A stretch of 64,000 nucleotides of DNA from a virus. Lineage: Duplodnaviria > Heunggongvirae > Uroviricota > Caudoviricetes. The position numbers and the translations under genes were made by a program. The stretch is from IMG/VR virus record IMGVR_UViG_3300032038_000006; one strand, written 5' to 3'. Shown here piece by piece: positions 36 through 61,880 of this stretch (position 1 is its first letter; the number at the start of each line of letters is the position of its first letter). The notes under the pieces are model-generated. The model was given only the letters and a program-made list of their open reading frames with translations, made no database searches and was not told the DNA's origin.

Positions 36-64
36 TTGACTTTTTTCAAAATTTATGTTAATAT
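36..64 (+). promoter_or_regulatory. sigma70-like promoter (variant -10 TAATAT)
   Basis: TTGACT n17 TAATAT. Confidence 0.45.
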
Positions 65-123
65 TATAATATAAGGTATGATACCTTATTTAAATAGTAT
101 TTTTTTTGGGAGGGATATAATAA

Positions 124-1284
124 ATGAGTACAGAAATGATATATCCAAATCCTCCATAGTTCTATGGAACCGATGGAGCAACTGGATTAGTCTCATATAT
201 CGGCGGCCCTAATATCGGATATTCAGACGGCGCGCCATTCGTTTCGGCGGCACTTCCTTGGGAACCCTTCCCTACAGCAAAAACTTCTGTGCCGCCAGTC
301 AATAAAAATGAGAAGATGTGGGGTATGACTTATGGATACTTCGCAAATAGGGGCGAAATTAAATCTGCTGAGGGAATAGAATCTCAGGAGCGTATGTATA
401 AGCTCAATAATAATTGGGTTTGCTTAACAATAGTAAACTACCAAGACACATATCATTCAACTCGAATTTATGCAGACCACTTGGCAACGCCAACGGAAGG
501 CGATATTAAAGAATTTGTCAGGGCGGCACATAAACGTGGGGTTAAAGTTTGCTTAAAACCAATGGTACATTCAAGAGATAATGTCTGGAGAGCCCATATC
601 GGCTTTCCAGACCTCAATATGGATGACCTCAATGCTTATTGGGGACCTTGGTTTGAAAGCTATAAAAACTTTATTCTCAGCTATGCAGAAATAGCACAAG
701 AATGTGGAGCAGAAATGCTATGTATCGGCTGTGAAATGCTTGGTACTGAGCACCGTAAGTATGACTGGGAATATATAATTAAAGAAGTCCGTCGTGTCTA
801 TAAAGGTAAAATTGTTTATAACACTAATCATGACCATGAAGATGACCAACAATGGTTTGAGCTTTGTGATTATCTTGGTACTTCTGCTTATTATCCAGTC
901 GGGGCAGAGTACCTTGACGGACCAGTAGATAATAGCTACGGCTCTCTTGTAAAAAGATGGTGGGAAATTCGTTATCGTCTTGATGCTATTGCTAAGGACC
1001 GCGGCAAACAATTCATCTTTATGGAAGTAGGATGTCGCTCAGTAATGAATGCTTCTGCTCATCCTTGGGACTTTACAGAAAGCCTTTCATATGATGAAGA
1101 TGAACAGTTGAATTTCTATATGTCTTGTATGGAAGTATTCAAAGATGACCCGTACTTTGCTGGAGTTTTCTGGTGGGATTGGCCGACATTCTTGCCAAAG
1201 AAGCATGGCGCTGATTTCTACATAATTGATAAGAAAGCAGAAGATTATCTCCAGCAATTCTATGGAGCGATGAATAATGTCTGA
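124..1284 (+). CDS. glycoside hydrolase-like (TIM-barrel GH26/GH113-like) protein; in-frame TAG at 157
   Basis: GGGAGG RBS plus ATG at 124. ORF is continuous through the TAG into the conserved domain. The track start at 289 is a GTG with no RBS. Confidence 0.55.
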
Positions 1285-1849
1285 TTTCACAAAAAAGTTT
1301 AAATATGACATCGGGGCTGAGCCTGGTAAAAAGGCCACCCCGAAAACATATACTTTTGAACCTAATGACGGAGAAAGGAAAGCAGAAATGACCTTTGACT
1401 TTTCTAATGTTAATGGTGATGAAGATAAACAAACGGTTTATCGTTTTATTGCAACATTAACAAGAGAAAAAGTCGAAGAGCTTGTTGCACGAGAATTTGC
1501 TCGCGGCAACATTAAGGTTTCTGACTCTAATGATGTTACTTACAAATGGGAGTATCTTCCTTATCACTACAACGAAACTTGGGCAGAGTATTGCGATTTA
1601 GTAGAGCAGGGACTTATAGGTCCAGAGTTTGTTTACTTTATTTATCGTGGTTATCACGACGAATCAGGTGTTAATTACGACACTATTACTTATAATGTTT
1701 TAAAACAACGTTATCCTGTGCTTCCCGAATGGGAAGAACGTCCTAAAGAACCTAATATGAATGAATTAATATATAAGATTGGTGTTTTGGAAAGACGAGC
1801 TGCTAATTTGGAAGATGCAATACTTGATGGAGAGAAAAGTCAATCTTAA
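1277..1849 (+). CDS. hypothetical protein
   Basis: ORF; ATG overlaps the upstream stop. Confidence 0.5.
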   Translation: MSDFTKKFKYDIGAEPGKKATPKTYTFEPNDGERKAEMTFDFSNVNGDEDKQTVYRFIATLTREKVEELVAREFARGNIKVSDSNDVTYKWEYLPYHYNETWAEYCDLVEQGLIGPEFVYFIYRGYHDESGVNYDTITYNVLKQRYPVLPEWEERPKEPNMNELIYKIGVLERRAANLEDAILDGEKSQS

Positions 1850-1853
1850 ATGA

Positions 1854-1882
1854 TTGACTTTTTCTTTTTCTTGTGGTATAAT
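1854..1882 (+). promoter_or_regulatory. sigma70-like promoter
   Basis: TTGACT n17 TATAAT, TGn. Confidence 0.6.
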
Positions 1883-1915
1883 GTTTACAGTAATCAAATT
1901 GGAGGAGAGGTATGA

Positions 1916-3034
1916 ATGAATTTTAATGAAAGACAAAAGAAAGTTATTTATGCTCAAGAGCCTAAAATACTATGCCTCGCAACCGCAGCTTGCGGAAAGA
2001 CAAGAGTTTTAACTGAGAGGATTCGAGTTTTAATAGAAGAAAAAAATGTTCTTCCACCAGATATTGTTGCAATATCATTTACTAATATGGCAGCCGATGA
2101 AATGAAACGTCGTATAGGCGGGGCGGCATCGGGAGCTTTTATTGGTACTATTCATTCTTATGGTAATAAGATTTGCACTATTAATGGTATTGATACTCAA
2201 AAATATCTTGATGATTATGACTTTGATGCTATCCTTCTAAGGGCAGTAAAGATACCTTCTTCAAAGTTTCCTAAGATTAAGCATTTACTTATTGATGAGT
2301 GTCAGGATTTAAGCCCTCTGGAATATCAATTTTTAATGAAAATTCCAACAGAAAATATCTTTTTCGTAGGAGATAACAGACAAGCTATTTACGGCTTCCG
2401 AGGTTGTACAGATGAATATCTAATTTCTATGTGGAAAGATACCGATTTCAAAAAATATTACTTAACTGAAAACTATCGCAATGCGCCAAACATTGTTCGC
2501 TTTGCAGAAAGCTTCTTGGACTCTTATACAAAGTTAAGCCCAAGTTCAATGCCAGTTAAGACGAGGGTGGGTATTCTTGAAGGAAAAGAAGAACGTATGC
2601 CGTTTATTGAAGCTCTTGAAGAACTGGAACTTTCACAGAACTGGGGCTCTTGGTTTATATTAACAAGAACCAACAATGAGCTTGCGGCGGCACAAGATAT
2701 TTTAAACAGTAGAAAAATTCCAAATGTCACCTTTAAAAAGGGAGACCTTGATTTGGATGAACTCGCGGCACTTTTAACAAGTAATCGTGTTAAGGTTCTC
2801 ACCATTCATTCAGCTAAAGGTCTTGAAAATAAAAACGTAATTGTTACAGGCGCACGTCTCTATAATGAAGAGGAACGTAAAATCTCATACGTCGCAGCAA
2901 CAAGAGCAGAGAACGCATTATACTGGTGTAATGCTATCGCTCCAAGAACTAAGAAAGGTCATAGAGCACTTCCGAAATCAGCCGAGGCGGGCAGAATCTT
3001 TGATAAGTCCACCACGGAGATGATTGAGTTTTGA
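1916..3034 (+). CDS. UvrD/PcrA-like SF1 helicase (short form)
   Basis: Motifs AACGKT, LIDECQDL, GDNRQAIYGFRG, NYRNAPNI, TIHSAKGLE, VAATRAEN. Confidence 0.7.
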   Translation: MNFNERQKKVIYAQEPKILCLATAACGKTRVLTERIRVLIEEKNVLPPDIVAISFTNMAADEMKRRIGGAASGAFIGTIHSYGNKICTINGIDTQKYLDDYDFDAILLRAVKIPSSKFPKIKHLLIDECQDLSPLEYQFLMKIPTENIFFVGDNRQAIYGFRGCTDEYLISMWKDTDFKKYYLTENYRNAPNIVRFAESFLDSYTKLSPSSMPVKTRVGILEGKEERMPFIEALEELELSQNWGSWFILTRTNNELAAAQDILNSRKIPNVTFKKGDLDLDELAALLTSNRVKVLTIHSAKGLENKNVIVTGARLYNEEERKISYVAATRAENALYWCNAIAPRTKKGHRALPKSAEAGRIFDKSTTEMIEF

Positions 3035-3531
3035 AAACGAAAGTATTATGTGATAATGAGGATTATGTAATAGAAATCGCTCTCGCGGCGCATATGGCTT
3101 TGGTAGAATGTAAAACTCCGATGTTTAATTTATCAGAAGGAGAAAAAGTTATTCTACTTGCTTTAGTCAAAAAGCAATTAAGAGAAGCGGGGTTTAAAGT
3201 AGATATTCCTACTGAATACTTCGCACAGGTCCCTATAATAGAGCCACGCACCTTTATTGGTTTAGCTGAGCCATTTGACGTGTTTGCGGTAGCATTAAAT
3301 TACTTATCCACATATGATGATTTAAGTAATCCAGATGATTACCTTGAAATTCTCGAAGAACTAAAGGAGCTTTATTCTGAACAAGAAATAATAAAAGGTG
3401 TAGTTTACACAGCTATTTTCCATACTCCAGTAAGAGGGGTTCGAGGATACTGTGCTCACATCACCGAAGAAAAATTAAGAATTGTCTTTTGGGGCTTCGA
3501 TGATTTAATTGAAAATGATATTTCAGTATGA
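3031..3531 (+). CDS. hypothetical protein (TTG start; alternative ATG at 3094)
   Basis: ORF only. Confidence 0.4.
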   Translation: MKTKVLCDNEDYVIEIALAAHMALVECKTPMFNLSEGEKVILLALVKKQLREAGFKVDIPTEYFAQVPIIEPRTFIGLAEPFDVFAVALNYLSTYDDLSNPDDYLEILEELKELYSEQEIIKGVVYTAIFHTPVRGVRGYCAHITEEKLRIVFWGFDDLIENDISV

Positions 3532-4518: not shown

Positions 4519-4625
4519 TACCCATTAGAAAAGATATGTGATTGACTTGGCAACTCAATTGCGTAAGCGAGACAAGTAAAAAGGCAAAAACAGAAAATAT
4601 CGAAATGGGAACACGCAACCAAAAG

Positions 4626-4651
4626 GAGTAGTCAATGACTACTCTTTTTTT
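4626..4651 (+). terminator. rho-independent terminator
   Basis: GAGTAGT..ACTACTC followed by T7. Confidence 0.65.
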
Positions 4652-4657
4652 AATTAT

Positions 4658-4686
4658 TTGACTTTTTAAAATATTTGTGTTATAAT
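4658..4686 (+). promoter_or_regulatory. sigma70-like promoter
   Basis: TTGACT n17 TATAAT. Confidence 0.65.
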
Positions 4687-4714
4687 TTAATAAAAGAATA
4701 AAAAGGAGGAAGAA

Positions 4715-5812: not shown

Positions 5813-6562
5813 ATGGGCGTAATAATTATGACAGATACTACTGATATACCGATTACAATGATTGGTGAATATGCAGGAGAATGTTGGGGAGCGAATACTA
5901 AAGACCACGAAAAGAATTATCAGCGAGGACTTGATTGTATCAAATGTAATCACGGCAGAACTATGGAGTTCCCGTAGGTTTATATGAAGATAACAGGTTA
6001 TTCAGCTCGTGTAATTCGTGAACTGTACACCCATATTGCTGGCGGCCCCACCCGTTTGCAAGCTTCTACTCGTTATATTGATTATGGAAATTTTGAGTAT
6101 GTAACTCCACCAAGTTTACAGGGGTCAGCATTGGCTGTTTATCAGAATATGATGAAGCAGATTTCTGATGCGGCGATACTTCTTGAAAAGACTTATAAAG
6201 TTTCAAGAGAAGACGTTGGTATGTTACTTCCTTTAGGTATGACATCAACTGTTGTTATCAGAACAAATCTTCGTCATTTAATTGATATGTCACATCAGAG
6301 ACTTTGTAGCAGAGCCTATTGGGAGTTCAGAAAGTTAATGAAAGAGATTATCGAAGCTCTTGCTTTTTACTCTGATGAATGGGCAACTATTGTTAAAGAG
6401 CTTAAATTATTTAAGCCTAAATGTGAAGTGCTCGGTTTCTGTCCTGAAGATAAGACTTGTAAGAGAAAGCCAATTAATGATGTGGCAACAAGAGATGCAT
6501 TACTTGCTCAATATCCATTTATAGTAGGAGTTGACTTAGCTCCAGAGGTGAATACCGAATGA
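5813..6562 (+). CDS. thyX: FAD-dependent thymidylate synthase ThyX; in-frame TAG at 5975
   Basis: GGAGGG RBS plus ATG at 5813. ThyX-like HG...EF and R..H...S..RY segments. The N-terminus is recovered only by reading through TAG. Confidence 0.65.
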
Positions 6563-7590
6563 TATGGATATTGGTTGTATTACTTGGTATCGTATGTGGC
6601 GGCATTACATATGCCGTCTGCGATATTTTATCGGTTAAGTCTCTTAAAGGTAAGTTAAAGTTTTCTTCCGAATAGGAGCAAGTTAAGAAAGGACTTATTG
6701 AGAAGAAAGATGCCGCCGTCAAGGAAATGACGGATGAAATCCAAAAGGAGATTGCGGGAAAACAGGCATCATTAAGAGAATACACCTCTATGCTCGACGA
6801 GAAGAAAGCCCAATATAATACCGATGTACAAAGACTTGACGCGCAATATATAGCGACTCGTGAAGAATATGCTAAAATGGATAGGGAAGCTGAACTTGAG
6901 CGTCAAAAAGAAAATGCTGAAATCGTTGCCGCGGCAACAGCAGAACGAGAAAAGAAGATAGCTGGTGTTCAGGCTCAATATGAGAAAGATAAGGAGCAGT
7001 TGGCTGTAAATTTTTAGACATTCAGCGACGAAATAAATTTGAAAAAGGCGGCGTTGACTGAAGAAATTAAAGCCTTTGAACAAAGACAGGCGGCAATCGT
7101 AGCTTAGTTTAAGAAAGATGAGGAAGTTCGTAAGCAACGTGACTTCTATCACATTACTCTTGATACTTTAACTCTTTCAGATATAGCTAAGTTAAAGTCT
7201 ATGGCACCTGGCTTCTCTCGTCCAGAAATCTTTTATAAACTTCTATATGAGACTTACTATAAAACTCAGATAGAGGAACTCTTTAAACGAGTTCTTGGTG
7301 ACAAGAAAGATAAGGGCGGCATTTATAAGATTACTAATATAAATGATGAAAAAGTTTATATTGGTAAAACAACAAAGTTTATAGACCGTTGGCGTACTCA
7401 TGCTAAGCGTGGCTGTAATATTGAACGAATAGCTGGTCAAATCTATGACGCTATGTTCAAAGAAGGTTTGGAGAACTTCACTTGGGAAATCGTAGAGGTT
7501 TGTCCAAAAGAAGAACAAACTGAAAAAGAAAAATACTGGATAGAATTTTATCACTCCGACCAGTATGGATATAATATCAGAAAGGGATAA
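6559..7590 (+). CDS. TM helix + coiled-coil + C-terminal GIY-YIG nuclease domain, one ORF if TAG (6673, 7015, 7105) is sense; GIY-YIG domain is 7201..7590
   Basis: No stop other than TAG between 6559 and 7590. Contains GIYKITN...YIGKT and YGYNI. Confidence 0.45.
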
Positions 7591-7598
7591 TCAATTAT

Positions 7599-7627
7599 TT
7601 GACTTTCCCTTTCTTTTATGATATAAT
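7599..7627 (+). promoter_or_regulatory. sigma70-like promoter
   Basis: TTGACT n17 TATAAT. Confidence 0.65.
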
Positions 7628-7659
7628 TTTTATATCAAAAGATGAAAGGAGAAATTCAA

Positions 7660-7740
7660 ATGGGACTTCTATTACTTGGTATAATTGTATATGTCTTTAC
7701 TAAAGCTGTCCTTGATGGTTTCTTCGATAACTTTAAGTAA
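7660..7740 (+). CDS. small hydrophobic peptide (26 aa)
   Basis: RBS AAAGGAG plus ATG, located after a promoter. Confidence 0.3.
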   Translation: MGLLLLGIIVYVFTKAVLDGFFDNFK

Positions 7741-7752
7741 GGAGGAAAGCGA

Positions 7753-8016
7753 ATGAGAGTAAGAATTTATCTCGATGGTTATAAGGATGTTGAAGCTTTC
7801 AGCAGAAAGTTAAACTTTTTAAATGATGAGAGCCGTATGGAGCTTGTCCATGGCAATGGCCGCTACAGAGTAGATGCGAGAAGCTTTCTTGGTGTTTTAA
7901 TGGCTCACGCTGAGTGGGGCGATGACATCTGGTTTGAAAGTGATAGCGACCTTTATTCTGTTATTGAGCCTTGGATAAATATCGAGGGCGGCGACGGCAA
8001 CTATATTCACGAATAA
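7753..8016 (+). CDS. hypothetical protein
   Basis: RBS AAGGAGG. Confidence 0.45.
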   Translation: MRVRIYLDGYKDVEAFSRKLNFLNDESRMELVHGNGRYRVDARSFLGVLMAHAEWGDDIWFESDSDLYSVIEPWINIEGGDGNYIHE

Positions 8017-8028
8017 GGAGAGATTTTT

Positions 8029-8739: not shown

Positions 8740-8753
8740 GGAGGAGATTTATA

Positions 8754-9086: not shown

Positions 9087-9095
9087 TTTTAAGAA

Positions 9096-9126
9096 AGTCA
9101 AAGCTAAAAAAGCTTTGACTTTTTTT
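9096..9126 (+). terminator. terminator whose 3' arm carries the -35 TTGACT of the next promoter
   Basis: AAAGTCAAAGCT..AGCTTTGACTTT followed by T6. Confidence 0.6.
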
Positions 9127-9143
9127 ATATTTTATAGTATAAT
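9115..9143 (+). promoter_or_regulatory. sigma70-like promoter
   Basis: TTGACT n17 TATAAT. Confidence 0.65.
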
Positions 9144-9172
9144 ATTATTATAAAAGTAAAGGAGAGATTAGA

Positions 9173-9430: not shown

Positions 9431-9431
9431 T

Positions 9432-11486: not shown

Positions 11487-11517
11487 ACTTTTATAAGTCA
11501 AAGGCTTAAAAACCTTT
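11487..11517 (+). terminator. terminator fused to the next promoter -35
   Basis: GTCAAAGG..CCTTTGAC followed by T7. Confidence 0.6.
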
Positions 11518-11534
11518 GACTTTTTTTCTGATTT
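11506..11534 (+). promoter_or_regulatory. sigma70-like promoter
   Basis: TTGACT n17 TATAAT. Confidence 0.65.
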
Positions 11535-11565
11535 ATAGTATAATATTTATATCAAAGGTGATAAA

Positions 11566-13308: not shown

Positions 13309-13320
13309 TAGCTTTGAGGG

Positions 13321-13350
13321 GTTCGAAAGAATCCCTCTTTCTTTTTCTTG
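13321..13350 (+). terminator. rho-independent terminator
   Basis: GAGGG..CCCTC followed by a T-run. Confidence 0.55.
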
Positions 13351-13376
13351 ACTTTTTAATTTTTCTGTGATATAAT
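13348..13376 (+). promoter_or_regulatory. sigma70-like promoter
   Basis: TTGACT n17 TATAAT, TGn. Confidence 0.65.
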
Positions 13377-13407
13377 AATTATATAATCAGAAAGGAGGGA
13401 AAAGTCA

Positions 13408-14001
13408 ATGAAGAAACCAATAGTTGTAAACCTATTTGCTGGTCCTGGCGCAGGAAAATCTACTGCGGCGGCTTATATCTTTAGTTAGTTAAAGATGAAG
13501 GGAGTAAATTGTGAGCTGATAACAGAGTTCGCAAAAGATAAAACTTGGGAGAAGAACTATTCCGCATTAAGATGTTAGGAATATGTTTTCGGCAAACAGT
13601 CCTATAAAATGGACAGATGCCGCGACCAAGTAGATGTTATCATCACAGATAGCCCATTGCCGCTCGGAGTATTTTATAATCAGAATCCAGTCTTGGGACA
13701 GCATTATGAACATTTAGTAATGGATGTGTTTAATACTTATGATAACATTAACTATTTTATCAATCGAAAAAAGCCTTACAATCCTGTTGGCAGAAATCAG
13801 ACAGAGGAAGAAGCAAAAGAGATTGATGTCAGAATAAAGAAGTTCCTTTAGGTCCATGATATTCCTTATTGGATAAAAGATGGAACTGAAGCAGGATATA
13901 CAGACATTTGTAATGACGTGTTGGATTATATCCATAAAGCACAAACAAAAGAATGGCTAAGCAATGAATATGATAAATTTGCGACAGAATATTACGATTA
14001 A
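13408..14001 (+). CDS. P-loop NTPase/kinase (dNMP-kinase-like); in-frame TAG at 13486, 13576, 13849
   Basis: RBS AAAGGAGGG. GPGAGKST Walker A. Continuous only if TAG is sense. Confidence 0.5.
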
Positions 14002-14005
14002 AAAT

Positions 14006-14034
14006 TTGACTTTCTGAAAATATTATTATATAAT
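14006..14034 (+). promoter_or_regulatory. sigma70-like promoter
   Basis: TTGACT n17 TATAAT. Confidence 0.6.
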
Positions 14035-14065
14035 ATATATAGAAAATCAAACAGGAGGAGAAGTA

Positions 14066-14368
14066 ATGAGTTTAAATCAGAGAGGATTTCAGCCTTGGGA
14101 TATAGTAAAGTCTAAGGTGCTTATGAATGTAACAATGCTCGAAAAAGTTGAAGACGAGAATGGGGTAACATCACTTAAAGTTACCGACAATCAAATTTTT
14201 AAGATGAGTGGTAAGGAGTTCAGAACAAGTCTTGAGCAGGACAGACTTGACGGCGTTAAACACAAGGTCGAGATTGTTTATGAAAAGCCTGAGAAGTTCC
14301 AGATAAATGGAATTTACATTCTTGCTGATGGCAGAAAGGCTTGGACTTTTGCTGAAAAGACCAATTAA
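14066..14368 (+). CDS. hypothetical protein
   Basis: RBS. Confidence 0.45.
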   Translation: MSLNQRGFQPWDIVKSKVLMNVTMLEKVEDENGVTSLKVTDNQIFKMSGKEFRTSLEQDRLDGVKHKVEIVYEKPEKFQINGIYILADGRKAWTFAEKTN

Positions 14369-14372
14369 AAAT

Positions 14373-14401
14373 TTGACTTTTTAAATAAAATATAATATAA
14401 T
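14373..14401 (+). promoter_or_regulatory. sigma70-like promoter
   Basis: TTGACT n17 TATAAT. Confidence 0.55.
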
Positions 14402-14433
14402 ATTATTACAATATTAAAAAGGAGCGATTTTAA

Positions 14434-15199: not shown

Positions 15200-15663
15200 T
15201 GGAGATAATAACTTCATACTTTTATCAAATAAGATTTTTTACTCCTAATATTATTCCATTAAGTATGGCGGTTTTTGACCCTGCTTGGTATCATATCAAC
15301 GGAGACTATAAGTCAACTTACGTTGATAAGAATGGTGTCCTTATCGGTTGTAGAGCGGACCCATTCGTATCAGACTTTCAAAATATGGCTGAATGTGGCG
15401 GCAAGACCTGTAAAGCAGACCCACATAGTTGTGCGTTTCTGCGTGATTATTATTTACAGCTCAAGTGCCTTGATTACAGAGAAATGATGGAGAGGTTCGA
15501 GAGCATTGGTCATCGAGTAAAAGACTTCTTACAATTTAAAGAAGACCCCGTTGCCGCCCTAATCGTTTATGAGAAACCAGAACAATTATGTTCAGAAAGA
15601 CTCATTATACAGAAATGGTTTAACGACCATGGCTATGAGATAAAAGAGTTTTCAAAAAATTGA
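15199..15663 (+). CDS. hypothetical protein
   Basis: ORF. Confidence 0.45.
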   Translation: MEIITSYFYQIRFFTPNIIPLSMAVFDPAWYHINGDYKSTYVDKNGVLIGCRADPFVSDFQNMAECGGKTCKADPHSCAFLRDYYLQLKCLDYREMMERFESIGHRVKDFLQFKEDPVAALIVYEKPEQLCSERLIIQKWFNDHGYEIKEFSKN

Positions 15664-15688
15664 CTTTTTTCTGATTTTATGTTATAAT
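15660..15688 (+). promoter_or_regulatory. sigma70-like promoter driving tRNA array 1
   Basis: TTGACT n17 TATAAT, TGn. Confidence 0.65.
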
Positions 15689-15723
15689 ATTTATAGTGAT
15701 TGAGAAAATCAGTCACAATTTAT

Positions 15724-16873: not shown

Positions 16874-16888
16874 TAAGCACTCAAAGAT

Positions 16889-16917
16889 TTGACAATTTTT
16901 ATAAAATATGTTATAAT
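16889..16917 (+). promoter_or_regulatory. sigma70-like promoter upstream of the suppressor tRNAs
   Basis: TTGACA n17 TATAAT. Confidence 0.65.
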
Positions 16918-17014
16918 TATTTTATAAGAATGAAAGACGCATTCAGCTATCATTTCTTACAATAGAACACTTAAAATGTTTAAAAGGTAAATGTAAAAGC
17001 GTCTTGGAGAATTT

Positions 17015-17194: not shown

Positions 17195-17320
17195 ATGCAG
17201 TACCTAATAGTTGTTTGTGTAACTGTGTTTCTTTGGAAGCTCATAGAAGTTATGCCAGACATCATCGCCGCAACCCATGACAAGAAGAAGACAGACCCCT
17301 ACAAAGACAATCATTATTAA
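17195..17320 (+). CDS. small membrane peptide (41 aa)
   Basis: RBS AAAGGAGG plus ATG. Confidence 0.3.
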   Translation: MQYLIVVCVTVFLWKLIEVMPDIIAATHDKKKTDPYKDNHY

Positions 17321-17324
17321 AAAT

Positions 17325-17353
17325 TTGACTTTTTTCTTTAGATATGATATAAT
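17325..17353 (+). promoter_or_regulatory. sigma70-like promoter
   Basis: TTGACT n17 TATAAT. Confidence 0.65.
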
Positions 17354-17382
17354 ATTTATGTACTTAAAAAATAACAAACAAT

Positions 17383-17457: not shown

Positions 17458-18180
17458 GTGCCATTATTTAATGGCATTGTAACTTAAATGTTACTGGTTG
17501 CGGCGAGACTTGTCAAGGAAAAGACGTTAAAACCCCACGAGGAAGTGGTTTAAATTCCCTTTACACCCTCGCTGAGAGAAAGCGAATCACCAAATATTCT
17601 CTACAGTTGAGTTGAGGTTTACTCATTGGACTGTTTAAAACCACAAAAACCAAATTGGGCAGAGACCCATCACAGACCTGCCCGACTGTGTGATGGCAGT
17701 ATAAATCCGTGTATTGGCTGGCACGGCAGCGGTTACGTACATTACCGTGAGTACGATAGGCACGCAATGTCCATTCGGGGAAGTACCGATAAAATTACGA
17801 CATCTACTGCTGACGATGTAAAAGGGAAAATTTCTTGGTTATGAACATACCTAAATCAAGTGGTTAAGCGGCGCGTTTACTGCGTTAGTGTGGGAACCTG
17901 ACGACATTACAATGGTCCATAACTTGTGTTGGTTATGGCGGCGATTAGAATAGTCGCCCGTTGTCACGGCAAATTATTCACATAGCTACAGCTCAGTGGC
18001 TTTATAACTAATGAGATTAGGTTGAAATTCCTTTCAGCAACTGGCGATGGAGGGGTTCGAGTACCCTGTCTCCTGTGTGCAGGAGATGTGGCGGCACCCA
18101 AGATTGTTGAAGAAATACTCTCAATTAAGTCGACCTTCACGTGGTGAGAGTGCTTGCGAAATGACTTAGAAATCAAAAAT

Positions 18181-18209
18181 TTGACATTTTTTATAATTTA
18201 TGTTATAAT
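18181..18209 (+). promoter_or_regulatory. sigma70-like promoter
   Basis: TTGACA n17 TATAAT. Confidence 0.65.
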
Positions 18210-18230
18210 AATTATAGAAAATAAAGAGAA

Positions 18231-29291: not shown

Positions 29292-29628
29292 ATGTTGGGA
29301 TGGAGAGGGCGGCAGCCGTTCTTCTCTTAACAATTTTTATGGTGAGGCGGCACAGAACAAACCTTCAACAGGTAAGAAGAAGGTAAAAGAAAAGACTAAG
29401 AAGTCAGACCATAAGCATGATTATGAGAAAGTTCTCATTAACTATGACGATTGGCACGGTCTCTGCGTTGGCAGATTATGTCGTATCTGTGGTAAACTTG
29501 TATGCGACAGAACTACTGTTTGTCTCCCGACAAATAATGGTTATTATCGAGCAATAGATGATGATGAACTTCTCAAACTCCCTGAGTACAAGGACCTAAG
29601 AATAATTAATGGCGGAAAATTCATATAA
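29260..29628 (+). CDS. hypothetical Cys-rich protein
   Basis: RBS GGAGG. Confidence 0.4.
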   Translation: MGKGDYRKVNECWDGEGGSRSSLNNFYGEAAQNKPSTGKKKVKEKTKKSDHKHDYEKVLINYDDWHGLCVGRLCRICGKLVCDRTTVCLPTNNGYYRAIDDDELLKLPEYKDLRIINGGKFI

Positions 29629-29632
29629 AAAT

Positions 29633-29661
29633 TTGACATTTTTTATATATTATGATATAAT
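29633..29661 (+). promoter_or_regulatory. sigma70-like promoter
   Basis: TTGACA n17 TATAAT. Confidence 0.65.
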
Positions 29662-29694
29662 ATATATAGAAAATGAGGAAAGAGGTAAAAAGAA

Positions 29695-32801: not shown

Positions 32802-32807
32802 TTTATG

Positions 32808-32845
32808 AAAGTCAAAGGCGTAAAAACCTTTGACTTTTTTTTTAT
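32808..32845 (+). terminator. terminator fused to the next promoter -35
   Basis: GAAAGTCAAAGG..CCTTTGACTTT followed by T9. Confidence 0.6.
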
Positions 32846-32858
32846 AATATGATATAAT
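32830..32858 (+). promoter_or_regulatory. sigma70-like promoter
   Basis: TTGACT n17 TATAAT. Confidence 0.65.
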
Positions 32859-32904
32859 ATATATAGAAAATGAGAAAAAGGTATAAATAAAAGGAGGAGC
32901 TTGA

Positions 32905-36969: not shown

Positions 36970-37395
36970 ATGATAATCGGAATTATACTCTTTAGCCTTT
37001 TAGCCTTTGGCATACTTATGCTTCTCTTACCATCAGAATTAACAGATTTCTTACCAGATTGGGTAGCTGGTTTCGTCGTTATTTGTTTATTTATCGGCGG
37101 CGCAGGCTCCCTTGTTGTGGGCTCAACATACATATGCGAAAGAACAAAAAGCGGCTATAAGCAAAACTATGACGAGTGGGATAATCGTCAGAGAGGACTC
37201 GCGGCAAGAATAAATGAGTGGAACAACGGTGCAGAAGACGATAAGTTATGGGATGAAGTAAAAAAGTATAACAGTGATTTAAAAGATTCTCAGTATTGGG
37301 CTAACAATAACTGGACCAGCTGGTTTAATGAAAATGCGTGCAATGAATTTGAAACATTTGATATACCTGAATATCAAAGAGATAAGGAGCAGTAA
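36970..37395 (+). CDS. membrane protein (paralog of 36540..36872)
   Basis: Shared motif. Confidence 0.4.
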   Translation: MIIGIILFSLLAFGILMLLLPSELTDFLPDWVAGFVVICLFIGGAGSLVVGSTYICERTKSGYKQNYDEWDNRQRGLAARINEWNNGAEDDKLWDEVKKYNSDLKDSQYWANNNWTSWFNENACNEFETFDIPEYQRDKEQ

Positions 37396-37412
37396 TGCTC
37401 CTTTTCTTTTTA
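37385..37412 (+). terminator. rho-independent terminator
   Basis: AGGAGCA..TGCTCCT followed by a T-run. Confidence 0.55.
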
Positions 37413-37420
37413 ATAAAAAT

Positions 37421-37449
37421 TTGACATTTTTTATATTTTATGATATAAT
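37421..37449 (+). promoter_or_regulatory. sigma70-like promoter
   Basis: TTGACA n17 TATAAT. Confidence 0.65.
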
Positions 37450-37481
37450 ATATATAGAAAAGATGAAAGGAAAGATGTTAA

Positions 37482-49794: not shown

Positions 49795-49805
49795 CAAATA
49801 AAAAT

Positions 49806-49834
49806 TTGACTTTTCTCATAAAATATGTTATAAT
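49806..49834 (+). promoter_or_regulatory. sigma70-like promoter
   Basis: TTGACT n17 TATAAT. Confidence 0.65.
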
Positions 49835-49865
49835 ATATATAGAAAATGAGAAAAGAGGTACAAAA

Positions 49866-50412: not shown

Positions 50413-50430
50413 ATACAGACAATAAAGAAT

Positions 50431-50459
50431 TTGACTTTTTCTAAAAAATATGATATAAT
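50431..50459 (+). promoter_or_regulatory. sigma70-like promoter
   Basis: TTGACT n17 TATAAT. Confidence 0.65.
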
Positions 50460-50494
50460 ATTTATAGAAAAGGTTAAGAAAGAGAGTAAATCTT

Positions 50495-50758: not shown

Positions 50759-50769
50759 GCAATAAAAAA

Positions 50770-50798
50770 TTGACTTTTCTTGAAAAATATGATATAAT
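50770..50798 (+). promoter_or_regulatory. sigma70-like promoter
   Basis: TTGACT n17 TATAAT. Confidence 0.65.
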
Positions 50799-50829
50799 AT
50801 TTATAGAGAAATGAAAGAGAGGTACTTTT

Positions 50830-51197: not shown

Positions 51198-51220
51198 ATA
51201 ATTCCAAAGCAATTAAAAAT

Positions 51221-51249
51221 TTGACTTTTTCTAAAAAATATGATATAAT
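51221..51249 (+). promoter_or_regulatory. sigma70-like promoter within tRNA array 2
   Basis: TTGACT n17 TATAAT. Confidence 0.65.
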
Positions 51250-51296
51250 ATTTATAGAAAAGTTGAGAAAGACAATTAAAGAAATTGGTGTTCTGT

Positions 51297-51818: not shown

Positions 51819-51843
51819 ATAATCTTCAATAACAAATAAAAAT

Positions 51844-51872
51844 TTGACTTTTTTTAGAAAATATGATATAAT
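51844..51872 (+). promoter_or_regulatory. sigma70-like promoter within tRNA array 2
   Basis: TTGACT n17 TATAAT. Confidence 0.65.
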
Positions 51873-51901
51873 ATTTATAGAAAAGGTCAAGAGAGAAAAA
51901 C

Positions 51902-52594: not shown

Positions 52595-52609
52595 ATAGCA
52601 GAAAAGAAT

Positions 52610-52638
52610 TTGACTTTTTCTATAAAATATGGTATAAT
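52610..52638 (+). promoter_or_regulatory. sigma70-like promoter within tRNA array 2
   Basis: TTGACT n17 TATAAT. Confidence 0.65.
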
Positions 52639-52766
52639 ATTTATAGAAAATGAGAAAGAGATTAAAAACTTCAAAGATATGAAGCAACTCTGGGCGTTCC
52701 TGAAAAACGGACAGTATCTTTGAGAGCGGATAAGGGTTTTATGAGTTTTACCTCTCTGCAAATAAT

Positions 52767-52845
52767 GGGCTTTGGGACTGCAAGGGGTGGTCACCTGTTT
52801 TGCAAACAGGAAAACAGATGGGTTCGATTCCCATAAGGTCCACCA
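52767..52845 (+). tRNA. tRNA-Ala(TGC) with G3:U70
   Basis: Loop TTTGCAA; G3·U70 wobble present. Confidence 0.7.
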
Positions 52846-53087: not shown

Positions 53088-53115
53088 TTTCCGAAAGGAA
53101 AAGGAAAAGAAAAAT

Positions 53116-53144
53116 TTGACTTTTTTAAAAAAATATGGTATAAT
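53116..53144 (+). promoter_or_regulatory. sigma70-like promoter
   Basis: TTGACT n17 TATAAT. Confidence 0.65.
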
Positions 53145-53222
53145 ATTTATAGAAAAGGTCAAGAAAACCAATTCAAAAAAATTAAATGATGACGTGCTAA
53201 GGCACAGAAAGTGAGGGCTATT

Positions 53223-53639: not shown

Positions 53640-53692
53640 TAACCCTTCAAACTGAAACATTCGCGGCGGGGCAATGACCTCGCCGTAGAAAT

Positions 53693-53770
53693 CGCGGCAT
53701 AGTGGAACTGGTTTAACACGCCACCCTCTCAAGGTGGAGAGTCGGGGTTCGAGTCCCCGTGCCGTGACCA
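53693..53770 (+). tRNA. tRNA-Glu(CTC)
   Basis: Loop CTCTCAA. Confidence 0.65.
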
Positions 53771-55780: not shown

Positions 55781-56626
55781 GCGTCGTTGGTGTAATGGTA
55801 GCATACTTGGTTCCATTCGCAAATTTAAATGTTATTCTCTCTTAATAGGAGAGTGATAAAATGCAAAGCGAAAATTTAATCAAAGGTCAGATAATTGAAT
55901 TAAAAGTTCAAGAAGAATTACTAAGATATGGATTTGATATTTCTATTCCTACTTATAATTCTTCAAGATATGATTTAATTGCAGATACAGGAAAAGAGCT
56001 TCTTAAAATTCAAATTAAAAAGTCTATTGGAGTTACTGAAAATAGCTTTAAATTTGATTGCTTTTCCTCAAATGTAACTGCAAAACAAGCTTCAAAACAT
56101 AAATACACAAAAGAAGAAGTTGATTATTTTGCTACTGTATGGAAAGATAAAGTATATTTAGTACCGATAGATGAAACTTCCTATAGTAAAACTATTCAAC
56201 TTGTTAAAAATAATTACGGCAATTATGCAGAAGATTATTTATGTGAAAATGTTTTACAAAGTTATTCAAGATTATCTGATGATGAGCTGTATAATTTCAC
56301 AAGTCAAAGAAAATATCATTGTAGTAAATGTGGTTGTGAAATTAAAACTAATTCAGAATATTGTGTTTCCTGCAAAAACTTATTGAGTCAAACAGTAGAA
56401 AGACCATCGCGAGATGAGTTAAAAACGTTGATACGCATCAAAACTTTTGTTGATATAGGCAAAATGTATAGCGTTTCTGATAATGCGATAAGAAAATGGT
56501 GTGATGCAGAAGGACTGCCAAGAAAGAAAAGTGAGATAAAAAAATATTCTGAAGTGGAGTGGAATAACATTTAAACATTGTAAATGGACCCAAACGGTCA
56601 GGGTTCGAGTCCTTGACGGCGTGCCA
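55781..56626 (+). tRNA. tRNA gene split by a roughly 770-nt insertion: 5' exon 55781..~55812, 3' exon ~56588..56626; anticodon probably CCA (Trp) or TCC
   Basis: 5' half GCGTCGTTGGTGTAATGGTAGCATACTTGG. 3' half CCAAACGGTCAGGGTTCGAGTCCTTGACGGCGTGCCA. The acceptor halves pair 7/7. Confidence 0.5.
55861..56574 (+). CDS. Hjc/PD-(D/E)xK-like nuclease + zinc ribbon + HTH; candidate intron-encoded homing endonuclease; AT-rich
   Basis: RBS AGGAGAG. ELKVQEELLRYGFDIS...YDLIAD...IQIKK. CSKCGC...CVSC. Confidence 0.5.
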   Translation: MQSENLIKGQIIELKVQEELLRYGFDISIPTYNSSRYDLIADTGKELLKIQIKKSIGVTENSFKFDCFSSNVTAKQASKHKYTKEEVDYFATVWKDKVYLVPIDETSYSKTIQLVKNNYGNYAEDYLCENVLQSYSRLSDDELYNFTSQRKYHCSKCGCEIKTNSEYCVSCKNLLSQTVERPSRDELKTLIRIKTFVDIGKMYSVSDNAIRKWCDAEGLPRKKSEIKKYSEVEWNNI

Positions 56627-56648
56627 AAAGTTTCAGTCATAGTACCTC

Positions 56649-56676
56649 GGGCAGCATTAGGCTGCCCTTTTTTCTT
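56649..56676 (+). terminator. rho-independent terminator after the split tRNA
   Basis: GGGCAGC..GCTGCCC followed by T6. Confidence 0.65.
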
Positions 56677-56695
56677 TCTATAAACAAATAAAAAT

Positions 56696-56724
56696 TTGAC
56701 ATTTTTATAATTTTATGGTATAAT
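56696..56724 (+). promoter_or_regulatory. sigma70-like promoter
   Basis: TTGACA n17 TATAAT. Confidence 0.65.
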
Positions 56725-56756
56725 ATATATAGAAAATAAGGAAAGAGGTAAAAACT

Positions 56757-58144: not shown

Positions 58145-58163
58145 GAGATAAACAAAAAGAAAT

Positions 58164-58192
58164 TTGACTTTTTTCATATTTTATGTTATAAT
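58164..58192 (+). promoter_or_regulatory. sigma70-like promoter
   Basis: TTGACT n17 TATAAT. Confidence 0.65.
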
Positions 58193-58226
58193 ATATATAG
58201 AAAATGAGGAAAGGAAATGAAAAAGA

Positions 58227-58916: not shown

Positions 58917-58935
58917 GAAAGAACAAAAGAAAAAT

Positions 58936-58964
58936 TTGACTTTTTTTATAAAATATGATATAAT
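58936..58964 (+). promoter_or_regulatory. sigma70-like promoter ahead of the 450-nt ORF-free region
   Basis: TTGACT n17 TATAAT. Confidence 0.65.
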
Positions 58965-59439
58965 ATTTATAGAAAAGGTTGAGGAAAGAAAATAAAAAGC
59001 GGTACACGGTTCGGTACGGTTTCTGAGTTCTCCGCTATATAAATGTGAAGTAATTGTAACCGATTGACATAGACCAGCCTTAGGTTGCTTGAGATACAGC
59101 AGGGGTAGGGCATCGCAGATGAGCGTGTGTGGTTGGGAAGAGACGAAATCCGCTGACCACTAAAGTTCTCCGACTGCAAGAGGTACGGCGGCAGAACTGA
59201 AAGGCGATTAATAAATTGACGGGGCAGCGGCTTTTAGGAGAATTTTCCTGCGTTTAGTGGAAAACAACCTTTCTACCTTTGGTTGACGGTGACTGGATAG
59301 TGGAACCGTTACCTCACTTTTAAATGGGGATTGGCAGAGGTCAGTATCTCGGGGAGTGTTTCAATGGAAATCTCCTGAGCCGCCGTTGAAAGAAACGGTC
59401 GAAGCGGGTTCCAACTCCCGTAGTCTCCACCAATTAAAT

Positions 59440-59516
59440 GTGGTTATGATGCAACTGGCAGACATCTTCGGCTAAGAACCGAAGTCTTGAGAGTTCGAAT
59501 CTCTCTAACCGCACCA
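59440..59516 (+). tRNA. tRNA with anticodon AAG in a type I body
   Basis: Stem CTTCGG/CCGAAG; loop CTAAGAA. Confidence 0.5.
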
Positions 59517-59518: not shown

Positions 59519-59593
59519 GTCTCAGTCGTTCAACGGATAGGACAGTGACCTCCTAAGTCGCTGATGTGGGTTCGATTCCCGCTTGGGACACCA
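59519..59593 (+). tRNA. tRNA-Arg(CCT)
   Basis: Loop CTCCTAA. Confidence 0.7.
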
Positions 59594-59602
59594 ATAAAAA
59601 AT

Positions 59603-59631
59603 TTGACATTTTTTATAAAATATGATATAAT
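59603..59631 (+). promoter_or_regulatory. sigma70-like promoter
   Basis: TTGACA n17 TATAAT. Confidence 0.65.
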
Positions 59632-59727
59632 ATATATAGAAAATGAGAGATAAGAAAAAAAACAAAAATCTCATTTCTATGCGGCTGAGCTGTTAGCAAA
59701 GAGGTTCGTCGCCAAACAGCTATTAAT

Positions 59728-60167: not shown

Positions 60168-60519
60168 AGCAAGACTCCATAACAGCAAACCAGAGAGGAA
60201 ACTCATAGCAAGTCAGAGCCATAGCGGGGCGGCAGGAGAGCAAACGGTATTAGTTCCTGCTTGCTAAACTCTTAGCTGATGATACCGATGGAGCAGGTCT
60301 TATCCTTGGCACCTAAAGAGCAAAGGACGGAATGCGTCGCTCGAAACCGCGACCGCAACCGAGTGTTTGCGATTAAAGAACAGGTACCACTGGCAGAAGG
60401 GGCATCATAAGTCCTTTAATAAGGCGAAAGTAATTCCAGTGATGTCGGTGCCCTGTTCACACTCATTAATATTTTTAATTTATTCACAAAAAATTTACAG
60501 AATATTCACAAAAAAATAC

Positions 60520-60548
60520 TTGATTTTTTTCAAAAAATATGTTATAAT
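60520..60548 (+). promoter_or_regulatory. sigma70-like promoter (-35 TTGATT) preceded by two TTCACAAAAAA direct repeats
   Basis: TTGATT n17 TATAAT. Confidence 0.55.
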
Positions 60549-60580
60549 ATATATAGAAAAAAAATAAAAAAGAAATAAAT

Positions 60581-61134: not shown

Positions 61135-61224
61135 TGCGGGGAGGGCTTTAGGAGCGAACCTCATTAAAAACTCCTATTAACATATAAAGTTATTAACCTG
61201 TTCCATTTGAGAGGAGAATGCTTA

Positions 61225-61362
61225 ATGGCTAAAAGAAACATCAATCAGTTCGTAACCCTCACAGCTTCCAGTAAGACTGTTGAGAAGTGGGATAATGAAG
61301 TTCGCAAGGCGGCTTCGGAAAAGCGTAAGGCTTCTCCCAAAGGCGAGAAAGGTAAGAGGTGA
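61225..61362 (+). CDS. small basic protein
   Basis: RBS GAGGAGAA. Confidence 0.3.
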   Translation: MAKRNINQFVTLTASSKTVEKWDNEVRKAASEKRKASPKGEKGKR

Positions 61363-61432
61363 GCATAATGCTCACCATTAATTCGCCACCGTAAAATCAG
61401 CGTCGCGGCACAGCCGCAGGAAAGAGGTTAAA

Positions 61433-61792
61433 ATGGAAAATGAAAAGACAGTAATCGACTTCACTGGTATGTCCACCTCTCAGGTCTACAAAGAGGTCCG
61501 TAAGAGACTTACAGAGGACTTCCTCGAATTTATGTCTCAGAAGTATGAGAGAGCAGTTCGTCTCAGCAATACAGAAGTTGCTGTTGTCCTCGGTTTTATA
61601 AACGACGAGGACGGTTTCCCTCACGATGTCTGCGGTATCTGTAAGGCACAGTCTAAAGCTTACTACTCTAAGGATACTGATGACAAGGGTAATGCTCTCA
61701 AGAGAGAGGTTAAGGAATTTAACATTGACGATGAGCTTGATGCCGCAATCCTTGAGACAAAGGCAAATCAGAAGGGCGTTCCTAAGAAGTAA
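61433..61792 (+). CDS. hypothetical protein
   Basis: RBS; followed by a terminator. Confidence 0.45.
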   Translation: MENEKTVIDFTGMSTSQVYKEVRKRLTEDFLEFMSQKYERAVRLSNTEVAVVLGFINDEDGFPHDVCGICKAQSKAYYSKDTDDKGNALKREVKEFNIDDELDAAILETKANQKGVPKK

Positions 61793-61810
61793 CAAACAAT
61801 GATATGAATA

Positions 61811-61840
61811 GCGGGGCGGTACAATCCGCCCTTTCTTGCT
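61811..61840 (+). terminator. rho-independent terminator
   Basis: GGGCGG..CCGCCC followed by a T-rich run. Confidence 0.55.
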
Positions 61841-61851
61841 CTAATAAAAAT

Positions 61852-61880
61852 TTGACTTTCAATATAAATTATGGTATAAT
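61852..61880 (+). promoter_or_regulatory. sigma70-like promoter
   Basis: TTGACT n17 TATAAT. Confidence 0.65.

Follow-up and report, generated by a model that had tools for sequence, protein, structure and literature searches.

The 64,000-nucleotide stretch of the Caudoviricetes record IMGVR_UViG_3300032038_000006 analysed here, hereafter the window, raises the question of why one phage region should carry dozens of copies of a single element of about 50 bp that resembles a complete bacterial promoter. We found 39 such elements. They very probably function as promoters for the primary sigma factor of the host (sigma-A/sigma-70 type), lying in the early and transfer RNA (tRNA) region of a TAG-recoded gut or rumen Bacillota phage of about 181 kb, and eight of them appear fused to a terminator. 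What we observe in the DNA is the sequence features of the elements, their copy number and strand bias, their position relative to genes, their conservation in relatives, and the covariation of the hairpins.

A pattern scan of the window for TTGACW-N17-TATAAT found 37 exact sites, all on the + strand; the chance expectation was 0.06 sites (mean of 100 dinucleotide-preserving shuffles), with a shuffle maximum of 1. Allowing one mismatch added two family members, at 60520 (-35 TTGATT) and at 36 (-10 TAATAT), for a total of 39, and nothing comparable was found on the minus strand of the window. A weight matrix was trained on 38 copies, leaving out position 36; the 38 copies scored 26-69 bits and position 36 scored 30 bits. 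No further site on the window's + strand reached 15 bits or more, and the count of 39 is therefore exact. The sole minus-strand match (15.9 bits) was the reverse image of the AT-palindromic copy 14006. The density is 39 copies in 61.8 kb, or one per 1.6 kb, and copies were present within both tRNA arrays, with another 12 nt upstream of the transfer-messenger RNA (tmRNA) gene.

The conserved unit runs from about -47 to +15 and holds about 63 bits in total, 21 of which come from the two hexamers; it exceeds the length that a promoter needs. The family consensus reads c..AAAAAT / TTGACT / TTTTTtTATAAaTATGn / TATAAT / ATwTAT / AGAAAA. TTGAC was unchanged in 37 of the 38 copies, the sixth base being T in 29 and A in 9, and the 17-bp spacer with TATAAT was retained in all 38 (copy 36 has TAATAT). 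An extended -10, with TG at -15/-14, occurred in 34 of the 38; its consensus, TATGn, lies inside TRTG, the -16 region motif of Gram-positive promoters. That motif was reportedly defined by Voskuil and Chambliss and by Helmann in 1995. Directly after the -35, the consensus spacer carries a run of T. Upstream, AAAAAT occupies -41 to -36, with A in 26-36 of the 38 copies at each position, and the A-tract from -41 to -37 sits where a proximal UP subsite would be and looks UP-like.

All 39 copies are intergenic and share the orientation of the genes. With the start site taken as the A located 7 nt past the -10, the established spacing, the predicted start lies mostly 22-28 nt upstream of the start codon wherever an open reading frame (ORF) with a ribosome-binding site is next in line. 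For 14 RNA units it lies 12-90 nt (occasionally more) upstream of a tRNA or tmRNA; the tmRNA starts at +12, and several tRNAs start at +15 to +44. A ribosome-binding site and start codon end the cassette in about 25 protein-coding units and are missing from the 14 units that begin with a tRNA or tmRNA. The initial annotation had described 39 copies, all on the + strand, about one per 1.6 kb, including copies inside the tRNA arrays and before the tmRNA. The exact scan, the shuffles and the weight matrix bear out the number and the strand, the 39 copies in 61.8 kb give the same spacing, and the gene positions agree with the placement. Its further description, a perfect -35/-10 pair with a 17-bp spacer and usually TGn, fits the 37 exact sites and the TG of 34 of 38 copies, while the variants at 36 and 60520 depart from it.

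The 80 nt around each -35 were folded, and an independent terminator scan was run separately. In eight copies (1854, 7599, 9115, 11516, 24549, 27894, 32830, and 39945), a hairpin of 9-15 bp takes its 3' arm from TTGACT and the adjoining bases, and the spacer T-run comes directly after it. Seven of these hairpins were among the best sites of the terminator scan, with 9-15 pairs, 3-6 of them GC, and folds of -14 to -22 kcal/mol; the scan listed several separate terminators as well, and a ninth fused hairpin is located at L206:454, a short way upstream of the window. The fold criterion gave the overlap in 7 of 38 copies against 1.07 expected (maximum 4 in 200 shuffles of the 34 nt upstream), a 7-fold excess. 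Two geometries were seen. In one, the -35 is separated from the loop by additional pairs (AAAGTCAAAG-NN-loop-NN-CTTTGACTTT); in the other, the -35 touches the loop, the stem runs into the spacer, and the spacer deviates from its T-run to match the upstream arm (GCGGAGAGTCAA/TTGACTTTCCGC). Eight more copies have a separate GC-rich terminator at most about 30 nt upstream. A clear stem-loop thus accompanies 16 of the 39 copies (8 fused, 8 adjacent), and the others show weak A/T pairing around the -35. Termination at these hairpins, like its efficiency, is a prediction.

The hairpin recurs in a wider set of 793 distinct consensus promoters, taken from the window and fetched loci. GTCAA was located at most 30 nt upstream in 61 of these promoters, against 25 expected; 49 of the 61 make stems of at least 9 bp, come from 38 sources, and contain 27 different inner arms, each with its matching complement. 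This covariation therefore supports the hairpin. In the other fetched loci, the fold criterion placed the -35 in a paired 3' arm in 71 of 816 promoters and inside the loop in 98, the loop class including GGGG...CCCC forms. The initial annotation had proposed at least six overlaps of a terminator with a -35 (9096, 11487, 24529, 32808, 39921, and 27872). All six are real and come at the top of the terminator scan, and the hairpins at 1834-1863 and 7579-7614 bring the total to eight. At the level of sequence, its portrayal of compact terminator-promoter modules holds, as does its view of the sites as sigma-70/sigma-A promoters of consensus type that have an extended -10 and hexamers spaced by 17 bp.

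Downstream of the -10, the full box AT[AT]TATAGAAA was found in 23 of the 39 copies, and each of its + strand occurrences in the window falls in a promoter; copies before about 17.4 kb depart from the box consensus. The box holds about 13 bits over -6 to +6. With a start 7 nt past the -10, ATWTAT would be the discriminator and only AGAAAA would be transcribed. Each of its positions would then map on a known RNA polymerase contact, namely an AT-rich discriminator, a start at T(-1)A(+1), which is the preferred pyrimidine-purine combination, G(+2), and an initial transcript made up of purines; G at +2 is a known core-polymerase contact (cited in PMC5961368). Purines make up 89% of +1 to +6 and 83% of +1 to +20, versus a background of 55%, and YG steps in the transcript start occur at half the background rate. 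The leaders are purine runs (83% purine) without RNA structure. In a large-scale study, YG and TA steps near +6 slowed promoter escape, and GG and GA favored it (PMC5961368); for T5 N25, a consensus-like promoter, escape is limiting and the initial transcribed sequence has a modulating effect (PMC12464699). We infer that the purine-only AGAAAA start would probably ease escape from a promoter that grips polymerase very tightly. Capping of the +1A transcripts of the nicotinamide adenine dinucleotide (NAD) type was also considered; the consensus for such capping wants a purine at -1, and the promoters here have T at that position.

The promoter of the suppressor tRNAs (window 16889-17170) has a discriminator and start, TATTTTATAAGAATG, unlike the family box, and the first tRNA(CUA) lies 91 nt past its predicted start. 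This deviant start may bear on the timing of recoding.

The elements were also followed into relatives and beyond. In L133, a relative with ~62% amino-acid identity, the same 52-bp consensus occurs 11 times in 20 kb. At three sites syntenic between the window and L133, the element is 86-91% identical while the flanks are 33-72% identical, and no DNA match between the two genomes is stronger than those of the promoters. The window's non-consensus copy 60520 has an identical counterpart in L133 and in a further relative, L140. Conservation of the element over diverged flanks therefore indicates purifying selection on the whole unit, and not recent duplication alone. A search with the 40-nt pattern TTGACW-N12-TRTG-N-TATAAT-ATWTATAGAAA returned at least 120 stretches, with about 90 IMG/VR contigs among the matches listed. 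The same pattern occurred in 64 stretches of bacterial assemblies, nearly all of them gut or rumen Bacillota metagenome-assembled genomes (MAGs). Many of these 64 are phage-like arrays, and three precede host genes: rpsP (ribosomal protein S16), pyk (pyruvate kinase), and pth (peptidyl-tRNA hydrolase). Other phages in the fetched loci have equally dense arrays of perfect promoters with lineage-specific flanks, and their promoters agree in having TA at -1/+1 and in opening the discriminator with A. A box specific to this phage lineage was ruled out, because many unrelated contigs and host housekeeping genes carry it.

Just past the window end lies a divergent minus-strand block of small genes (L205:12700-20516, record about 79.4-87.3 kb). 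It contains about 15 consensus promoters in 7.5 kb, of a second class with the upstream box (C)TAACAAAAAAcTa-TTGACA that keeps the TATAAT-ATATATAG core of the window family. Some have GGGG/CCCC hairpins around the -35, and some have a TTTGTGCA box; the subclasses recur in unrelated IMG/VR contigs, for example L038, L074, and L025. A segment of ~1.5 kb is duplicated within this block.

The initial annotation had credited every promoter with the conserved box and had seen in it a sign of an additional factor or an RNA-level signal. The former overstates the case, since 23 of 39 copies carry the box, which lies mostly upstream of the likely start, and the latter is not needed. It could be argued that the box ATWTATAGAAAA is a site, or an RNA 5' tag, for a phage factor that controls all early units jointly, such as a repressor acting in shut-off, an endonuclease of early mRNA, or a protein specific for 5' ends. 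Such a factor would suit a box that is conserved beyond most host promoters in its 13 bits, is kept in relatives, and is common to the second promoter class on the minus strand past the window; the lack of the box in the suppressor-tRNA copy 16889 could likewise mean different regulation. However, the same box comes after consensus promoters in about 90 unrelated viral contigs and stands before the host genes rpsP, pyk, and pth, and an extra factor is therefore not required. Moreover, the full box is absent from 16 of the 39 copies, no more than 6 nt of it would be transcribed, the leaders are unstructured purine runs, and Pfam scans of 20 window proteins recognized no sigma factor, anti-sigma factor, or other transcription regulator. 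Joint control by a phage factor is thus improbable in our view, and the box is read as part of the host polymerase optimum, for which a dedicated factor or RNA tag would be possible but unnecessary.

It is far less probable still that the repeats are not promoters at all and that a selfish or structural repeat, such as an element like a miniature inverted-repeat transposable element (MITE) or a packaging or replication signal, merely resembles one. Their high copy number and the cross-matching of 50-90-bp units at 80-96% identity are what such a repeat would give, but in every copy both hexamers stand at the optimal 17-bp spacing with TRTG, and the copies are intergenic, co-oriented with genes, and at a set distance from start codons or RNA genes. 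They are also kept at syntenic sites in diverged relatives, and no terminal inverted repeats were seen. Rfam searches (gathering threshold; E <= 0.05) returned only tRNAs, the tmRNA, and three sub-threshold matches, none of which overlaps promoters or leaders.

As host primary sigma promoters, the elements would work as follows. Each is close to an ideal promoter, with the A-tract, TTGACW, the 17-bp spacer, TRTG, TATAAT, and an AT-only discriminator, and transcription would start at A, flanked by T(-1) and G(+2). In protein-coding units, the cassette would continue as a purine leader of 22-28 nt that holds the ribosome-binding site. In the eight fused copies, the intrinsic terminator of the upstream unit would be merged with the promoter: the 3' side of the hairpin stem would be built from the -35 and its flanks, the spacer T-run would supply the U-tract, and upstream transcripts would therefore end 10-20 nt before the next start. 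The outcome would be about 39 short, individually insulated units of 1-12 genes, about 14 of them tRNA or tmRNA units.

The promoter and terminator-promoter readings have good support in sequence, position, conservation, and covariation. Several points weigh against this reading of the array. The full box is missing from 16 of the 39 copies and so is not strictly required; the hairpins are only moderately GC-rich (3-6 GC pairs), and termination may be partial; and the T-run after the -35 is retained in copies that have no hairpin, which the reading leaves unexplained. A few genes of the promoter units contain in-frame TAG, so that the label "early" is not clean. The start site, strength, timing, termination, and the sigma factor that reads the elements are all predictions, and the Bacillota host is suggested by the TRTG motif, the strong ribosome-binding sites, the bin labels of MAGs, and protein matches.

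The genomic setting was examined along with the promoters. The window lies within a 180,954-bp ENA metagenome contig, its position 1 being at about record position 13,944. All its genes are on the + strand, and they include 46 tRNA genes, two of them tRNA(CUA), and the tmRNA, together with two RNA ligases, a kinase/HD protein, a UvrD-like helicase, a DUF2828/VWA protein, and an SPFH protein; many small ORFs have no family match. The tmRNA (window 47800-48144; tag peptide ADYAIAA*) has its own consensus promoter. TAG is a sense codon in this phage: the large upstream genes (L206:566-7335, record 6424-13193) hold 3-21 in-frame TAG each, and most window genes hold none, with 1-3 in a few (about 124-1284, 5813-7590, and 26460-27839; also L205:11365-12171). 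The upstream block of large recoded genes contains one consensus promoter in 8 kb, versus one per 1.6 kb in the window, which fits promoters that mark early, standard-code genes, the timing being a prediction. Megablast of 20 kb against cultured phages gave tRNA-sized matches only. The best protein matches were to phages of Clostridium, Bacillus, Listeria, and Moorella, and related contigs fall in the bins of Clostridia MAGs from rumen and gut. The phage is best read as a gut or rumen phage of about 181 kb, and the window as its early-gene and tRNA region.

Near-identical repeats of about 50-90 bp, placed every 1.6 kb in one orientation, might also serve as recombination substrates for gene insertion, deletion, and swapping, and so underlie the plasticity of the region. 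The window was compared with 47.8 kb, assembled from three loci, of the ~93%-identical relative IMGVR_UViG_3300019845_000023. Opposite the single window cassette at 39945, the relative has a cassette A1, a 2.67-kb block of seven ORFs (the first HNH-like), a terminator, and a cassette A2. The window cassette is a chimera, like A1 up to the leader and like A2 from GGAAGTAAAAAT on, and a crossover in this shared leader would account for the cassette-flanked insertion/deletion (indel). At five cassettes (27894, 32830, 49806, 56696, and 59603), gene insertions or replacements begin +7 to +28 past the predicted start, and in L122, a more distant relative, the same genes occur in a thoroughly shuffled order; a recombination mechanism of this kind has been demonstrated for the T4-type cassettes discussed below (PMC2839356). 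Against such a role, the placement of 5 of 20 indel junctions in cassettes (window versus a 93-95% relative) is enriched under a uniform null (P = 0.002) but not when the null is limited to non-coding DNA, about one-third of which is cassettes (P = 0.84). In addition, many tRNA-array junctions fall at tRNA ends or ribosome-binding sites and not at promoters, and most rearrangement junctions in L122 have no promoter. A recombination hotspot at the cassettes is thus not claimed, the enrichment being gone under the non-coding null; a recombination role is plausible but unproven, and we hold it only tentatively, as somewhat less likely than its absence.

Single-gene presence/absence differences from close relatives have junctions at ribosome-binding sites or tRNA 3' ends. 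A 136-amino-acid ORF with a tRNA-synt_2c domain (window 27956-28366) is present only in the window phage among these relatives, tRNA-Arg(CCU) (window 59519-59593) only in the window, and tRNA-Ile(AAU) (L140:11996-12064) only in the relative.

The closest known system is the promoter-early stem-loop (PeSL) cassette of T4-like phages (Arbiol et al. 2010, PMC2839356; Comeau et al. 2014, PMC4122927). It combines an AT-rich region and a near-consensus sigma-70 promoter with a stem-loop, which stops transcription arriving from upstream, and with a ribosome-binding site and start codon, and it is repeated through hyperplastic regions; its promoter and terminator activities have both been shown experimentally (PMC2839356; PMC4122927). 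Five subclasses are distinguished by stem-loop position, one of which overlaps the -35 box (PMC2839356). The array here shares with PeSLs the repeated composite of ~50-100 bp, an AT-rich upstream part, a promoter like the TTGACA-N17-TATAAT of RB49/phi1, in 16 copies a predicted stem-loop terminator, and in the protein-coding units a ribosome-binding site and start codon that end the motif. Each is concentrated where genes are small and variable (here one per 1.6 kb, compared with one in 8 kb among the large late genes), the relatives here likewise differ in gene content and order, and the one cassette-flanked indel matches the PeSL recombination model. The two differ, however, in that PeSL phages infect Gram-negatives, whereas the phage here is TAG-recoded and would infect Bacillota; that only 16 of the 39 copies have a clear stem-loop; that 14 copies serve tRNA or tmRNA genes and lack a ribosome-binding site; and that the recombination role is statistically unproven here. 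The hairpin is of the AAAGTCAAAG/CTTTGACTTT type here and polyG/polyC in PeSLs, polyG/polyC around the -35 being seen in neighboring and other phages.

Other systems are similar in part. Large Bacillota phages, such as SPO1 with its host-takeover module and the Kayviruses K/812, have many strong consensus promoters for the host sigma factor and short early units; phage 812 has 63 predicted promoters and 30 terminators in 140 kb, with a logo per promoter class, and the passages considered describe no terminator/-35 fusion (PMC6445280). Compared with SPO1 and the Kayviruses, the array here is more uniform (~63 bits), extends through tRNA arrays, and, over the 20 kb compared, shows no DNA similarity to cultured phages beyond tRNA-sized matches. 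In T5 early promoters, the first transcribed bases are A- and purine-rich, as here, and we know of no terminator fusion in T5. These promoters (N25) are also very strong and consensus-like, with output set by the initial transcribed sequence (PMC12464699), and they differ from those here in host group and downstream-region sequence. The morons of lambdoid phages are likewise genes with their own promoter and terminator (discussed in PMC2839356), but they have no common flanking cassette, whereas here the flanks are one repeated element. We thus read the array as a PeSL-like set of early promoters from another group of phages, whose consensus is unusually uniform and runs on through the tRNA arrays.

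A bolder possibility is that the fusion acts as a hand-off and does more than save space. Sliding of RNA polymerase after termination and its re-initiation have been shown in single-molecule work (PMC6978380, PMC10372574). Once its transcript is released at the spacer T-run, a polymerase would already stand on the next -35/-10 and might re-initiate without leaving the DNA, so that units would be insulated at the RNA level yet coupled through polymerase, with the cassettes also acting as recombination sites that shuffle the early genes of this widespread group of TAG-recoded Bacillota phages. We regard this combined scheme as speculative and rather unlikely.

Table 1. The 39 promoter elements in whole-window coordinates; terminators, start sites and hairpins are as predicted
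Element	Coordinates	Strand	Score
Copy 1, variant (-35 TTGACT at 36, -10 TAATAT); 5' of GH113 gene	30..76	+	30 bits
Terminator hairpin 1834-1863, 3' arm = -35 (TTGACT at 1854), with promoter; UvrD-like helicase ORF at 1916	1834..1894	+	
Separate terminator 4621-4649, promoter (-35 at 4658); ORF at 4715	4621..4698	+	
Hairpin 7579-7614 (AGAAAGGGA...TCCCTTTCT, interior loop) pairing or enclosing -35 at 7599, with promoter	7579..7639	+	
Terminator hairpin 9091-9125, -35 (9115) within 3' arm, with promoter; ORF at 9173	9091..9155	+	
Terminator hairpin 11495-11522, -35 (11516) within 3' arm, with promoter; ORF at 11566	11495..11556	+	
Separate terminator 13316-13337, promoter (-35 at 13348)	13316..13388	+	
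Promoter (-35 at 14006); single-ORF unit 14066-14368	14000..14046	+	
Promoter (-35 at 14373); GIY-YIG ORF at 14549 in unit	14367..14413	+	
Promoter (-35 at 15660); tRNA-Gln, Met, Lys, Ser	15654..15700	+	
Promoter (-35 at 16889), deviant downstream box; two tRNA(CUA) amber suppressors	16883..16929	+	
Promoter (-35 at 17325); tRNA-Gly	17319..17365	+	
Promoter (-35 at 18181); 12 tRNAs and RNaseH-like ORF	18175..18221	+	
Separate terminator 21421-21446, promoter (-35 at 21461); ORF at 21523	21421..21501	+	
Promoter (-35 at 22094); DUF2828/VWA gene	22088..22134	+	
Terminator hairpin 24527-24557, -35 (24549) within 3' arm, with promoter; ORF at 24608	24527..24589	+	
Promoter (-35 at 25567); ORF at 25628	25561..25607	+	
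Terminator hairpin 27872-27907 (stem reaches into spacer), -35 (27894) within 3' arm, with promoter; ORF at 27956	27872..27934	+	
Promoter (-35 at 29633); RNA ligase ORF at 29695	29627..29673	+	
Terminator hairpin 32807-32838, -35 (32830) within 3' arm, with promoter; ORF at 32905	32807..32870	+	
Separate terminator 37384-37403, promoter (-35 at 37421); ORF at 37482	37384..37461	+	
Terminator hairpin 39923-39951, -35 (39945) within 3' arm, with promoter; ORF at 40006; site of cassette-flanked 2.67-kb indel in relative	39923..39985	+	
Promoter (-35 at 42989)	42983..43029	+	
Promoter (-35 at 43905)	43899..43945	+	
Separate terminator 45635-45660, promoter (-35 at 45678); ORF at 45739	45635..45718	+	
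Promoter (-35 at 47753); tmRNA begins 12 nt past predicted start	47747..47793	+	
Promoter (-35 at 49806); next gene replaced in a relative from +7	49800..49846	+	
Promoter (-35 at 50431), subfamily ATTTATAGAAAAGGTYRAG	50425..50471	+	
Promoter (-35 at 50770); small ORF, then tRNA-Arg, tRNA-Thr	50764..50810	+	
Promoter (-35 at 51221); tRNA-Cys, Thr, Lys	51215..51261	+	
Promoter (-35 at 51844); six tRNAs	51838..51884	+	
Promoter (-35 at 52610); tRNA-Ala, tRNA-Glu	52604..52650	+	
Promoter (-35 at 53116); 542-nt stretch, then nine tRNAs	53110..53156	+	
Separate terminator 56649-56667, promoter (-35 at 56696); next gene differs in two relatives, from ~+7 and ~+16	56649..56736	+	
Promoter (-35 at 58164)	58158..58204	+	
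Promoter (-35 at 58936); 469 nt, then tRNA-Leu	58930..58976	+	
Promoter (-35 at 59603); tRNA-Lys, tRNA-Glu	59597..59643	+	
Promoter variant (-35 TTGATT at 60520), identical in two relatives; tRNA-Ser	60514..60560	+	
Separate terminator 61813-61831, promoter (-35 at 61852); ORF at 61905	61813..61892	+	

Long non-coding or doubtfully coding stretches separate some promoters from the first tRNA (58971-59440, 53151-53693, 52645-52767, and 16924-17015) and may hold unannotated small RNAs, as may another such stretch (23643-24262) 3' of the DUF2828/VWA gene, which is possibly Ro-like. The only matches there were a sub-threshold Rfam match to 6A RNA (23727-23774) and two weak, YrlA-like ones (20994-21050 and 51329-51464).

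The tRNA region also contains a split gene. tRNA-Trp(CCA) (window 55781-56627) is interrupted directly 3' of the anticodon by a 772-bp insert (55816-56587), whose ORF (55861-56574) encodes a 237-amino-acid PD-(D/E)XK_5 protein, leaving about 60 nt of the insert outside the ORF. In the 95% relative, tRNA-Trp is intact (L140:7939-8012); in the 62% relative (L133:9940-10742), a homologous ORF occupies the same position in that phage's own diverged tRNA-Trp, both exons being intact. Homologues of the ORF also lie within split tRNA-Asn and tRNA-Leu(UAA) genes of other phages (L137:9838-10510; L138:9293-10325). A group I or group II intron signature was looked for in the insert of the split tRNA-Trp, and none was found. 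The window has no second tRNA-Trp, and the phage encodes the two RNA ligases and the kinase/HD protein mentioned above. The split gene may represent a new kind of phage tRNA intron or splicing arrangement.

For transcription in general, the array is well organized and potentially useful; it leaves current understanding unchanged and would not surprise a specialist in phage transcription. For hosts of the Clostridia type, the 52-bp consensus could be of use as a strong, insulated part for expression. For this uncultured TAG-recoded phage of about 181 kb, the array amounts to a transcription map, with about 39 units, their likely starts, and 16 predicted terminators. It puts host-type promoters in front of the two suppressor tRNAs, of the tmRNA, and of 44 other tRNAs, which bears on the timing of the switch to the recoded late genes. 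If true, the scheme of hand-off and recombination would extend the PeSL principle beyond T4-like phages. The array and the fetched loci also show that composite promoter-terminator cassettes, so far described for T4-like phages of Gram-negatives, are common in gut and rumen Bacillota phages.

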